From contig JBNGCW010000003.1 of the NCBI GenBank assembly GCA_049975525.1, positions 31,779 through 95,778 on the forward strand: a stretch of DNA of 64,000 nucleotides, in the 5' to 3' direction. Shown one piece after another: positions 5,706-59,681 of this stretch. The position numbers and the translations under genes are program-made. How positions within the stretch are numbered: the stretch's first letter is position 1; each line of letters starts with the position of its first letter. Under the pieces are notes generated by a model, which saw only the letters and a program-made list of their open reading frames with translations, searched no databases and was not told where the DNA came from. The stretch is from Anaerolineae bacterium. Lineage in GTDB: Bacteria; Chloroflexota; Anaerolineae; B4-G1; SLSP01.

Positions 5706-5777
5706 TGCGGGGTGGAGCAGTGGCAGCTCGTCGGGCTCATAACCCGAAGGTCGGCGGTTCGAATCCGCCCCCCGCTA
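5706..5777 (+). tRNA. tRNA-fMet (CAU, initiator)
   Basis: Cloverleaf; anticodon arm TCGGG-CTCATAA-CCCGA with three G-C pairs; unpaired position 1:72; GGTTCGAATCC T-arm; CCA not encoded. Confidence 0.95.
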
Positions 5778-5792
5778 TTTTTCGTTTCGTGG

Positions 5793-5864
5793 GGCGAGGT
5801 AGCTCAATGGTAGAGCAGGGGACTCATAAGCCCTTGGTTAGCAGTTCGAGTCTGCTCCTCGCCA
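5793..5864 (+). tRNA. tRNA with CAU anticodon, probably tRNA-Ile2 (elongator Met not excluded)
   Basis: GGCGAGG/CCTCGCC acceptor stem; GGGGA-CTCATAA-GCCCT arm resembles Ile2-type tRNAs; TTCGAGT T-loop. Confidence 0.88.
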
Positions 5865-10416: not shown

Positions 10417-11241
10417 CTAGTCTGATCTCCCTCTTCCCTTTCCCCTGCCGGCGGCGTGATCGGGTGGGCCGGGGTTTTCTGGGGATCCATCGTTCTCAGG
10501 TGGGCCAGCGTCGTCGGGTGGGCCTGGGTTCTCGGGGCGTTCGACATCCTCGGGAGGCCCGGCGTGATCCGCTGGCCCGGGGTTTTCGGGGCGTTGGGCG
10601 TGATCGGGCGGACCGACCTCTTCCCGCCGGCCGATGAGGTTCAGAGATTGCCAGATTTGTCCCCAACCTTCGCCTGCCAGTCGGCGTTCCAGGCTACTCT
10701 CCGGCGATTCACCGGTTATCTGGGCGGTGTGCAGGGCGAGCATGATCTGCCCAAAGCTCAGATTGTCCTCGCAGAACCAGCTCATCACCTGCTCGTAGGT
10801 GACTTCGTAGCGCTCCGCGAGAGCTACGCCGGCAGGATGGGAGAACTCGGAGTTAGCGCAGAAAAAGTTGACGCCGTCGTTTTCCTCTTCTCCTTCCTTT
10901 TCCTCCTCGGCGTCTGTCTCCTCTTGCACTGTGTCGGCTACGATGACGCCCTCGTCCTCACCCGGAACGCCCTCGACTTCAACGACGCTTCCTACCTCAA
11001 TCTCCTCGAAGTTGAAATCCTCCGGCGCCACCACGGTGTAAGTTTGGGTCTCGCCGTCCTCCGCCTCCACTTCGATGACCAGAATACCGTTCGTTTCGTC
11101 GATGGTGACCACCGTGCCGACAACTTCCACTTCCTCGTCTGACGACTCGTGCGCGGGGGCCGCGCCCACGGCGCTGACGCCCAACATAGCTCCCAACAGC
11201 ATTAACGTGACTAAAACGACTAACCATCGTCCGGGTTTCAT
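10417..11241 (-). CDS. Secreted acidic protein with OB-like domain, GWGQIW motif and C-terminal 18-aa Pro-rich repeats
   Basis: Signal peptide MKPGRWLVVLV..VGA; AGGAG RBS before ATG 11241. Confidence 0.75.
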   Translation of the reverse strand: MKPGRWLVVLVTLMLLGAMLGVSAVGAAPAHESSDEEVEVVGTVVTIDETNGILVIEVEAEDGETQTYTVVAPEDFNFEEIEVGSVVEVEGVPGEDEGVIVADTVQEETDAEEEKEGEEENDGVNFFCANSEFSHPAGVALAERYEVTYEQVMSWFCEDNLSFGQIMLALHTAQITGESPESSLERRLAGEGWGQIWQSLNLIGRREEVGPPDHAQRPENPGPADHAGPPEDVERPENPGPPDDAGPPENDGSPENPGPPDHAAGRGKGRGRSD

Positions 11242-21371: not shown

Positions 21372-21460
21372 GACTCACCTGAAATAACTCATAAAAATCG
21401 GATTTCTCCAAAACTCACCATTACCTGTAGGGGATGGCTGGCTAGAAATCCGATTTTTCT
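21372..21460. mobile_element. Family-B MITE, partial, with one internal box unit deleted
   Basis: GACTCACCTGAAATAA..AAAAATCGGATTT..AAATCCGATTTTT. Confidence 0.75.
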
Positions 21461-21544
21461 CACCGTTGATCGGTAAGACGTGCTGGAGGCCGGGGATCGT
21501 GGGCCGGTCTTCTCTTCATCCGATGTGCGGGCGCGGTCTAATCG

Positions 21545-22892: not shown

Positions 22893-22918
22893 GACTCACC
22901 TGAAATAACCCATAGAAA
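22893..22918. mobile_element. Isolated family-B TIR directly upstream of the UbiD gene
   Basis: GACTCACCTGAAATAAC, identical to the start of the 21372 copy. Confidence 0.65.
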
Positions 22919-22977
22919 GGAAGCTTAAACGGTTCGACGCGACTACGTGACTAAACGACGATTTAACTCCTATTTAC

Positions 22978-36644: not shown

Positions 36645-36657
36645 GGAATGTAATACT

Positions 36658-36796
36658 GACTCTGCTGAAAAAGGTCCTAAAAATCGGATTTTTAACAAGA
36701 CATCCCCTATATCTAGTGGTTTTGACCGCGAATTTTCCCAAACGTAGTGGCAAGTTCCGGAAAAATCCGATTTCTGCCGGTTATTTCAGTGGAGTC
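36658..36796. mobile_element. Family-B MITE (139 bp) with a perfect 6-bp TSD and tandem NrdR-like boxes
   Basis: GACTCTGCTGAAA...TTTCAGTGGAGTC; AATACT at 36652-36657 and 36797-36802; inner IR AAAAATCGGATTT/AAATCCGATTT; boxes at 36704 and 36735. Confidence 0.88.
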
Positions 36797-36819
36797 AATA
36801 CTGAAAAGGTGAAACCGTT

Positions 36820-42517: not shown

Positions 42518-42550
42518 ATCAACGGATGAAGCGGATTTAACAGATGAGAC

Positions 42551-42677
42551 AACTCATAAAAATCGGATTTCTCTAAAACTCGCCCCTGCATGGAGGAGAA
42601 TTTGCGGTCAAAACCACCAGATATGGAGGATGATCGACTAGAAATCAGATTCTTTCATTACCTTTTTTAGATAAGTC
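42551..42677. mobile_element. Family-B MITE, reverse orientation, degenerate
   Basis: AAAAATCGGATTT..GCGGTCAAAACCACCAGATATGG..TTTTTAGATAAGTC is the reverse complement of the 36658 copy. Confidence 0.78.
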
Positions 42678-46554: not shown

Positions 46555-46731
46555 TCGGTTAGTCACTTAGTCAGGTAGTCAAGTAGTCGTTTAGTCGGAT
46601 GGTCGCTACTACCAGACTATCAGACTACCTGACTATTGGACTATCAGACTACCGGACTACCAGACTACACGACTACCGGACTACACGACTACCAGACCAC
46701 AGGACTACTAGACTATGAGACTAAAAGACTC
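46544..46731. repeat. Foldback array of 8-bp units: 8 x TAGTCnnn then 16 x GACTAnnn
   Basis: Strict 8-bp period; overlaps the stop of the upstream gene and the first codons of the downstream gene. Confidence 0.92.
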
Positions 46732-47446
46732 TGTCGTGCTTATCACTGGCGGCGCGGTGCGCGTAGGACGGGCGGTGGGCCTCTACCTGGCCGAACGCGG
46801 CGCGCACATCGCCTTCAGCTACTATCTGGAGGACGAACCCTGGCAAGCGACGCTGGACGAGATCAAGGCCCACGGCGTGGACGCCATCGCCGTCCAGGCC
46901 GCCGTCGAAGACGCTGATTCTGTCCGGCATCTAGTGGACGTCACCCTGGAGCACTTTGGGCGCATCGACGTACTGCTCAACAACGCCTCGGTCTGGCTGA
47001 AATCGCCCCTGCTGGAACTGAGCGAGGAAGAGTGGGACCGCGCGTTGAACGTCAACCTCAAAGGGCCGTTCCTCTGCAGCAAAGTCGTCGCGCCCATCAT
47101 GTTGGCGCAGGAACGCGGCCTGATCCTCAATATCACCGACATCTCCGCCTTCCAGGTGTGGGAGGGCTACGCCCATCACGCCGCCAGCAAAGCGGGCCTG
47201 GTCTCACTGACCAAATCGCTGGCCGTGGAACTGGCGCCGTACGTGCGCGTCAACGCCATCGCGCCGGGCACCGTGCTCCTGCCGGAGGATTGTCCTCCCG
47301 AAAAGGAGGTCTGGGCCAAAGAAAAGTCGCTGCTGGGGCGCATTGGCTGCCCGGAGGACGTGGCGCGCACCGTCGCTTTCCTCATGGAATCGGATTTCAC
47401 CACCGGCAGCGTCTATTTTGTGGATGGGGGACGCGCGCTGGTATGA
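46715..47446 (+). CDS. SDR, pteridine reductase (FolM/PTR1)-like
   Basis: TGGAVRVG, NNAS, ILNITD, RVNAIAPG; HAASK in place of YxxxK. Confidence 0.8.
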   Translation: MRLKDSVVLITGGAVRVGRAVGLYLAERGAHIAFSYYLEDEPWQATLDEIKAHGVDAIAVQAAVEDADSVRHLVDVTLEHFGRIDVLLNNASVWLKSPLLELSEEEWDRALNVNLKGPFLCSKVVAPIMLAQERGLILNITDISAFQVWEGYAHHAASKAGLVSLTKSLAVELAPYVRVNAIAPGTVLLPEDCPPEKEVWAKEKSLLGRIGCPEDVARTVAFLMESDFTTGSVYFVDGGRALV

Positions 47447-52688: not shown

Positions 52689-52715
52689 GCCTGGAAGACT
52701 CTGCTGAAAAAAACT

Positions 52716-55757: not shown

Positions 55758-55876
55758 GACTCTACTGAAAAACCTTTTTCAGTAGAGAAAGGGATACTAT
55801 ATCTCGTGGTTGGGTGCAGTCCAACCACAACATATACCCCATATTTTCTTTGGCTGACCCTTTTTTCAGGGCAGCC
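55758..55876. mobile_element. Family-B MITE variant with tandem NrdR-like boxes
   Basis: GACTCTACTGAAA...TTTCAGGGCAGCC; ATACTATATCTCGTGG (55794) and CCACAACATATACCCC (55825). Confidence 0.7.
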
Positions 55877-59385: not shown

Positions 59386-59524
59386 GACTCACCTGAAAAA
59401 AAGTTCAAGAAATCGGATTTTTAGGTGGCCATGCACTACATCTAGTGATTTTGCTCATGAGAAACCCACATATAGTATCAAGTCGTAGAAAAATCCGATT
59501 TCTGCCGGTTATTTCAGTGGATCC
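59386..59524. mobile_element. Family-B MITE (139 bp) with tandem NrdR-like boxes; a second TIR and a hairpin follow at 59531-59593
   Basis: GACTCACCTGAAA...TTTCAGTGGATCC; flanks AAGTTT/AGGTTT; boxes GCACTACATCTAGTGA (59433) and AACCCACATATAGTAT (59463). Confidence 0.85.
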
Positions 59525-59681
59525 AGGTTTGACTCATCTGAAGAAAGGTCCTAGAAAACCCTGGTTGTGTCATATGGCACAACCAGGGTTTCTTACCTCT
59601 TGAAAAGTAGCCGATGTTGATGGTCAAAAACGATTATGTGTTGGATGCCCGGTCCCGAATGCAGGCTTGAGGAGGGGGACG

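Follow-up and report, generated by a model that had tools for sequence, protein, structure and literature searches.

Correia elements of Neisseria carry a site for IHF, and REP/BIME and ERIC sequences carry sites for IHF or gyrase. The insertion sequences IS10 and IS50 couple their transposition to replication through Dam sites, and eukaryotic transposable elements spread transcription-factor sites. The protein NrdR is usually described as a repressor specific to the RNR genes, having one to few operators per genome; the NrdRs of S. coelicolor and E. coli bind heterologous sites as well. On searching the full-text literature for NrdR together with MITE or repetitive-element terms, no paper was found.

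The features of an NrdR operator are laid down in those sections of PMC13584703 that deal with the boxes and the bound structures. Each box has six conserved positions and at least 63% A/T between C4 and G13; two boxes are required, and they are separated by a linker of 15-16 bp (or 26-27 bp), a 14-bp linker being tabulated for one Thermotoga promoter (PMC13584703). In S. coelicolor NrdR, the residues Asp15 and Arg17 contact C4 and G13, and the NrdR-DNA structures show a sharp bend at each box (PMC13584703). The survey of NrdR boxes presented in the same sections covered only 500 nt upstream of RNR operons (PMC13584703), and sites on dispersed repeats therefore could not be seen in it.

Copies of the repeat in the window

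We analysed a stretch of 64,000 nucleotides (the window) from an Anaerolineae draft genome of 4.11 Mb, which has 61.7% G+C, comprises 80 contigs and is 94% complete. A preliminary description, made from the sequence alone, had proposed that a mobile 139-bp MITE carries tandem NrdR-like boxes into promoter regions here. The copies of this repeat (family 1) and of a related one (family 2), along with the parts of the copy at 36658-36796, are as follows:

36658-36796, + strand: complete family-1 MITE, 139 bp (nhmmer model positions 1-139, 130 bits)
36652-36657 (left) and 36797-36802 (right): target-site duplication (TSD) AATACT, flanking the copy at 36658-36796
36658-36671 (left, + strand) and 36783-36796 (right): terminal inverted repeats (TIRs), imperfect
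36681-36691: inner repeat AAATCGGATTT, with its partner AAATCCGATTT at 36763-36773
36704-36719: NrdR-like box 1, 6/6 critical positions, 20.2 bits
36735-36750: NrdR-like box 2, after a 15-bp linker, 5/6 critical positions (position 9 changed), 5.9 bits
59386-59524, + strand: complete family-1 copy of the second young subfamily
59531-59560, + strand: solo left end of a further copy
42-111, - strand: right-hand part of a family-1 copy at the start edge of the window (model positions 1-71)
21372-21467, + strand: truncated family-1 copy of 96 bp, with the left TIR, both inner repeats and one decayed box
22893-22920, + strand: solo TIR, flanked by genes for a UbiD-family protein and an HTH-cupin regulator
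42545-42677, - strand: old, diverged, full-length family-1 copy with one good box (17.4 bits) and a decayed partner
52697-52715, + strand: solo TIR, flanked by genes for a radical-SAM protein and a nitroreductase
55758-55876, + strand: family-2 MITE copy, with palindromic boxes at 55794-55809 and 55825-55840 and a 15-bp linker

In sum, three copies of family 1 in the window are complete, two of them young and one old; a fourth is truncated and a fifth cut off at the window edge. There are also three solo ends and a single copy of family 2. The 139-bp element with its TIRs, inner repeats and AATACT on both sides is present as first described; its ends read GACTCTGCTGAAA on the left and TTTCAGTGGAGTC on the right, and an E1 dehydrogenase alpha gene, named by its Pfam match, follows it 23 bp downstream. 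The second 139-bp copy at 59386-59524, also reported earlier, has the flanks AAGTTT and AGGTTT, alike at five of six positions; its boxes at 59433-59448 and 59463-59478 are separated by a 14-bp linker and score 26.3 bits as a pair, and a CitMHS/Na-sulfate symporter gene follows the copy 142 bp downstream. A luciferase-like monooxygenase gene starts 7 bp from the truncated copy; the old full-length copy is located 77 bp upstream of a pterin-binding gene, and the family-2 copy between divergent CofD and phosphonate-binding genes. All the further copies listed in the preliminary description hold, the one it placed at 42551 corresponding to 42545-42677 in the opposite orientation. The three box pairs that it quoted were recovered with start-to-start distances of 31, 30 and 31 bp, and the neighbouring genes had been correctly named.

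Other repeated sequences were observed in the window. Positions 46600-46735 consist of a tandem array of about 17 units of 8 bp, of the type GACTAYCA. A small perfect hairpin at 59556-59592 follows the solo MITE end, and near-identical copies of it are found at C10:95480-95526 (98%) and in the congener G004; it looks like another short repeat family. The G+C-rich repeat at 10454-10615, with an 18-bp period and five copies of a 54-nt register, probably codes for a repetitive peptide. Two adjacent tRNA genes at 5706-5864 (Rfam 65.5 and 67.7 bits) are the only matches in the window to reach the Rfam gathering score.

Family size, mobility and distribution

When the window's genome was searched iteratively with nhmmer, 377 matches to family 1 were obtained, corresponding to 227 non-overlapping loci, far beyond what is expected by chance, and 96 of these loci are near full length. 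The elements are non-coding and 119-186 bp in size, and the repeat makes up 0.63% of the genome. Matches on both strands, seen at 150 loci, show the element to be imperfectly palindromic from end to end. Amongst the 48 complete copies, defined as those extending from model position 1 to 139, 23 are flanked by perfect duplications of 6-8 bp (13 of 6 bp, six of 7 bp and four of 8 bp), while shuffled pairings of the flanks lead one to expect 0.5, 0.18 and 0.07, respectively, or less than one in total. The flanks of family-1 insertions tend to read A(A)...TT. At the orthologous site of a congener (G002:C388), between the same two genes, the element is absent and the flanks are 89-93% identical; the copy at 36658-36796 is therefore recent.

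The element is mobile, and it is a MITE: short and non-coding, with TIRs, TSDs and presence/absence polymorphism between genomes. The earlier suggestion of a non-autonomous mobile element is thus borne out by the TSDs and by the empty orthologous site. A REP/BIME-like or IS200/IS605-type palindromic element, which would be mobilised by a Y1 (HUH) transposase and insert without duplicating its target, was considered and does not fit, as target duplications are present.

A search of 40 relatives, which are draft MAGs, detected family 1 in four of the seven congeners and, as a weak match, in one further genus. Among the matches listed, public records that contain these subfamilies carry the label of Anaerolineae or Anaerolineales MAGs. 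Public runs labelled crude-oil or oil-field metagenome have contigs with the filled site, at 0 differences; the empty allele was not seen in the four public runs, where contigs break inside the repeat and none spans across it. The contigs of the RNA library do not amount to evidence of transcription. When the collection was scanned with the inner-repeat pair, the matches from other phyla (Thiotrichaceae and relatives, cyanobacteria and others) shared only the 11-mer, among the matches listed.

The 11-mer pair AAATCCGATTT / AAATCGGATTT also occurs, among the matches listed, as hairpin units in tandem arrays of giant sulfur bacteria and other phyla. Such arrays, at loci L039-L117, come from Thiotrichaceae, Parabeggiatoa-type MAGs, other Gammaproteobacteria and others, and they are without TIRs and boxes. 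The 11-mer common to the arrays and the MITE may be a shared protein-binding motif or may be due to chance.

The preliminary description had suggested a search for an autonomous insertion sequence with the same TIR and a 6-bp TSD, and none was found in this 80-contig, 94%-complete draft, which does not speak against its existence, as contigs often end in the repeat and the genome is incomplete. The scan recovered 58 pairs of TIRs lying 250-4000 bp apart. Long ORFs were read inside 18 of these 58 pairs, and no transposase was found among them, or enclosed by TIRs spaced at 0.6-4 kb, in the draft, whose contigs often end in the repeat; they were ordinary genes, such as an epimerase, an asparaginase-like gene, MetK, response regulators and others. 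A self-BLAST of the draft genome revealed no multi-copy insertion sequence. A stretch of 1 kb, 98% identical between G000:C3:175389-176395 and C30:47999-48994, encodes a DDE transposase. These DDE transposase fragments at contig ends were considered as a parent and rejected, their terminus being unlike the MITE TIR.

A second, related family

Family 2 is 119-123 bp long and comprises 108 loci, 72 of them near full length. Its termini are of the family-1 kind and duplications of 6-8 bp were seen by eye, but the inner 11-mers are missing and each end is folded back on itself, giving three hairpins in a row. The centre is again occupied by a palindromic box pair with a 15-bp linker. On comparing box 1 of family 2 with the reverse complement of box 2 from the second young subfamily of family 1, 13 of 16 positions match. 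The consensus has 11 of the 12 critical positions, lacking G13 of box 2; 37 of the 72 near-full copies likewise have 11/12, and four have 12/12. Measured to the nearer terminus, the boxes of either family lie at only two distances, 36-37 or 46-47 bp (for family 2 partly counted by hand), which are about one helical turn apart.

NrdR and its operators in the lineage

The proposal that NrdR binds the repeat presupposes the repressor itself, and nrdR is present in the genome (TIGR00244, 164 bits). Because the N-terminus aligns without a gap to NrdRs of solved structure, Asp15 and Arg17 are seen to be kept. The RNR genes lie about 10 kb beyond the window, with nrdD followed by a class II-like gene. 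Upstream of nrdD is an operator of tandem boxes with a 15-bp linker, located just after a TTGACA-17-TATAGT promoter and found at the same place in a congener. A clear box pair was also found upstream of nrdR in 16 of 29 relatives of the order.

In the window's genome, the region upstream of nrdR (G000:C46:1-750) shows no canonical operator; it contains a family-2 copy at 228-348 and a decayed family-1 copy ending 27 bp before the start codon. In G005 and G006, congeners without detected copies, no box pair lies upstream of nrdR (best scores 1.5 and -1.9), and none was found at nrdD of G005. The idea that the core of the MITE was captured from the nrdR operator was examined on this basis and set aside: the core is not visibly copied from it, G005 and G006 being without a box pair at nrdR.

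The nrdD gene has a peculiarity of its own. Its frame (G000:C3:108124-111141) encodes 1006-1036 residues, against about 700 in most relatives, and the Pfam match is split by about 325 residues, which suggests a putative intein. Three relatives have nrdD frames of 1146-1152 residues that are split at another position.

Comparison of the boxes with NrdR operators

A symmetric weight matrix was derived from 16 box pairs of nrdR promoters in relatives without a detected copy of the repeat. For this, the 300 bp upstream of nrdR were searched in 29 relatives, and pairs with at least 11 of the 12 critical positions (C4, A6, A8, T9, T11 and G13 in each box) were kept. The consensus sequences of the two young subfamilies of family 1 score 33.6 bits (first) and 29.0 bits (second) as pairs, as compared with 26.5 bits for the genome's own nrdD operator and a range of 18-42 in the training set; the few family-2 copies with 12/12 critical positions score 25.0 bits. 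By score, then, the centre of the element is as good a match to the predicted NrdR operators of the lineage as is the nrdD operator of the genome itself.

Pairs were called operator-grade at 24 bits or more, provided that each box reached 7 bits or more and that the linker measured 14-16 bp. Such pairs number 67 genome-wide, 60 in family 1, four in family 2 and three elsewhere, and 50 shuffles of all 227 loci produced none. The boxes are thus operator-grade by the lineage's own matrix, in line with the preliminary description, for which a score no better than that of shuffled DNA had been the first objection. The three pairs elsewhere are the nrdD operator, one assigned to a CRISPR leader and one orphan. 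Judged by the matrix, operator-grade copies of the repeat outnumber the operator at the RNR locus by about 60 to 1; the pairs on the repeat are scattered intergenically and not at the RNR promoter, the genuine operator being at nrdD.

The pair assigned to a CRISPR leader (G000:C15:93391-93437; 29.7 bits, 15-bp linker) lies just downstream of cas1-cas2 and about 350 bp from the contig end, and its position is probably within the leader. The orphan pair (G000:C65:7754-7800; 27.8 bits) is intergenic and follows a hairpin; it belongs to neither repeat family, and no nucleotide-metabolism gene adjoins it.

The count of critical positions agrees with the scores. Pairs with 12/12 critical positions number 37 in the genome, 31 of them in the 0.63% made of repeat, and amongst the 96 near-full family-1 copies 23 have 12/12 and 38 have 11/12. 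Both young consensus sequences have 12/12, where the two boxes are not independent evidence because in a palindrome a box near the centre gives the second by symmetry. As to the linker, 29 of 30 copies in the first young subfamily have 15 bp, as does family 2, and 21 of 23 copies in the second young subfamily have 14 bp. A hand count of A/T between C4 and G13 in the first-subfamily consensus gave 7/8 for box 1 and 5/8 (62.5%) for box 2, the latter at the edge of the published 63% limit. In their non-critical flanks, too, the boxes resemble the lineage's operators: positions 1-3 form a C-run and positions 14-16 a G-run. At the level of sequence, the element would largely answer to the description of an NrdR operator, apart from its location and, in one subfamily, the length of its linker, and with the A/T content of box 2 at the limit.

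Conservation of the boxes

Clustering of the 96 near-full copies separated two young subfamilies (n = 30 and n = 23, with 91-92% internal identity) from 43 older, diverse copies. Identity between the two young consensus sequences is 70.5%. They agree at every one of the 12 critical positions and differ at 16 of the remaining 35 columns of the operator (hypergeometric P = 0.0027). A different picture emerges when copies are compared with the consensus of their own group.

Operator-grade copies and substitutions relative to the group consensus (cells are not independent, because copies share ancestry)
First young subfamily: operator-grade 26/30; critical positions 6.9%; linker 4.2%; other classes 3.3-8.2%
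Second young subfamily: operator-grade 14/23; critical positions 2.9%; linker 3.7%; other classes 3.7-9.2%
Old copies: operator-grade 6/43; critical positions 19.3%; linker 12.2%; non-critical box positions 19.8%; other classes 12.2-21.1%

The best conserved module of family 1 is the pair of inner 11-mers, with substitution rates of 1.4-7.6%, and the termini (GACTC / GAGTC) are also among the best conserved alignment columns. The preliminary description had judged the boxes to be better conserved than the DNA between them. This stands for the comparison between the two subfamily consensus sequences (0/12 against 16/35) and does not stand among individual copies; preferential conservation copy by copy, whose lack that description had named as speaking against its proposal, fails in two of the three copy groups. 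A sub-lineage with box 1 changed at position 6 has also spread, so that transposition does not strictly require an intact pair. Read together, these patterns would place the signal of constraint in the lineages still making copies rather than in copies that have landed.

Proposed explanation

The explanation we favour, at a probability of roughly 0.6, is that the MITE is bound by NrdR in its young copies, that the operator is kept by the element lineage, and that effects on neighbouring genes and on the NrdR pool are by-products. A transposase acting in trans and making target duplications of 6-8 bp would move the MITE, the centre of which would be a tandem NrdR operator of two 16-bp boxes 14-15 bp apart. 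From the match to the lineage's operators, a NrdR tetramer loaded with ATP and dATP is predicted to bind the young copies. The operator would be kept in the transposing lineages and not by host selection at single insertion sites, because old copies lose their boxes at the same rate as other positions. It may be a feature at the level of the element, that is, a host-factor site in mobilisation, or else a passenger or relic of the control region of a parent; family 2, which is without the inner repeat, still keeps the box pair with its 15-bp linker. Repression or roadblocking of adjacent genes and the soaking-up of NrdR would be side effects. The preliminary description had also suggested that the element could titrate NrdR or couple a parent insertion sequence to dNTP pools, either of which may apply.

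A more specific reading, which we regard as rather doubtful, takes NrdR for an architectural host factor of the transposon, with the centre of the element built for bending by it. With a length below the persistence length of DNA, the element cannot easily bring its ends together unaided; the boxes sit at its centre of symmetry, NrdR in its solved complexes bends DNA sharply at each box, and the two values of the box-to-terminus distance recur in both young subfamilies and in family 2, whose other inner parts differ. Excision or integration would then occur only with NrdR in its ATP + dATP DNA-binding form, transposition would be tied to the dNTP state of the cell, and dozens of decoy operators might buffer NrdR and alter RNR control in the genus.

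Alternative explanations

In the preliminary description the repeat was thought to sit on the promoter side of genes and to wire the region to dNTP status, the host having adopted the spread NrdR operators to control acoAB-like, monooxygenase, pterin-binding, F420/phosphonate and SLC13-type genes. These neighbours were correctly named, operator-grade pairs do lie within 200 bp upstream of 39 genes, and the 38 of these downstream genes that were examined include one deoxynucleoside kinase and two adenine deaminases. However, the 38 genes are functionally unrelated (regulators, transporters, peptidases, a tRNA synthetase and Hsp70 are among them) and no shared theme was found, which leaves the adaptive wiring unsupported. 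Nor is there a bias in placement. With genes called by a crude custom caller (2839 genes, 82.6% coding), 137 of the 227 loci lie between co-directional genes, 37 between divergent and 20 between convergent ones, 13 inside genes and 20 at contig edges, a mix close to that of intergenic regions by count (73%, 14% and 13%, respectively); the median gap is similar whether taken to gene starts (149 bp) or to gene ends (126 bp). Only six of the 43 old copies are operator-grade, and old copies keep their critical positions no better than others. A promoter scan found no sigma-70-like promoter in the two full window copies, and the window copy at 36658-36796 is recent, being absent at the congener site. 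Adoption by the host therefore appears very improbable, and the preference remains for an operator maintained by the element itself.

That the boxes are not NrdR sites at all is less remote, if still unlikely: they might bind the cognate transposase or another regulator, or be a by-product of the palindrome with a coincidental likeness. Subterminal and internal repeats of transposons often bind their own transposase, any AT-rich palindromic 16-mer placed symmetrically yields a 'pair' (150 loci match on both strands), and conservation per copy carries no NrdR-specific signal. Against this, the two young subfamilies retain every one of the 12 critical positions although they differ at 16 of 35 neighbouring columns, the C-run at 1-3 and the G-run at 14-16 agree with the operators of the lineage, the boxes are spaced by 15 or 14 bp, and only three such pairs, that of nrdD among them, occur outside both repeat families in 4.1 Mb. 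The palindrome could also be functional as a hairpin, in the manner of a REP- or ERIC-like repeat acting on transcripts as a stabiliser, terminator or processing site, or as a cruciform. As single-stranded DNA, the copy at 36658 folds at -22 kcal/mol, compared to a mean of -12.1 for shuffled sequences (z = -3.6, with 0 of 200 as good), its stems being formed by the TIRs and inner repeats, and family 2 amounts to three consecutive hairpins. Yet the box region pairs poorly in the predicted fold, and a terminator scan detected no terminator-like site inside either full window copy. The target duplications are those of a DNA transposon, and because of this the palindrome is expected from the TIR architecture alone; we give the hairpin little chance of being the functional part. 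NrdR binding to an operator carried by the element lineage hence remains the preferred explanation.

If NrdR does bind, the pool of free repressor, and hence the dNTP supply, would depend on the copy load of the repeat, each new insertion would put a nucleotide-sensing roadblock beside arbitrary genes, and the repeat may exploit NrdR in its own transposition. Bacteria would then offer a clear case of a transposable element that bears the binding site of one particular metabolic sensor. Genome-wide scans for NrdR boxes in such lineages will mostly match repeats.

Relation to known systems

The operators at RNR promoters, of which nrdRJ and nrdAB of S. coelicolor and nrdAB, nrdHIEF and nrdDG of E. 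coli are treated in the relevant sections of PMC13584703, have the same two partly palindromic 16-bp boxes, and they have C4, A6, A8, T9, T11, G13 and, with box 2 at the limit, the A/T-rich core in common with the boxes of the MITE. The 15-bp linker is likewise present in one MITE subfamily and in family 2, the other subfamily having 14 bp. Unlike the RNR operators, the MITE pairs reside on a mobile intergenic repeat, with about 60 operator-grade pairs against one at nrdD. Similar to eukaryotic transposable elements, the repeat brings a ready-made site to many loci, although here with no sign of adoption by the host. With Correia, REP/BIME and ERIC sequences it shares the form of a short, non-coding, intergenic repeat with inverted ends and, presumably, a central site for a DNA-bending host protein. 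However, the presumed host protein of the MITE is a nucleotide-sensing, gene-specific repressor and not a general nucleoid protein, and REP/BIME make no target duplications, whereas the present MITE does. There may also be a likeness, in terms of signal, with IS10 and IS50: in those elements a host signal is tied to replication status, and in the MITE the corresponding signal would be the ATP/dATP state, conveyed through NrdR.
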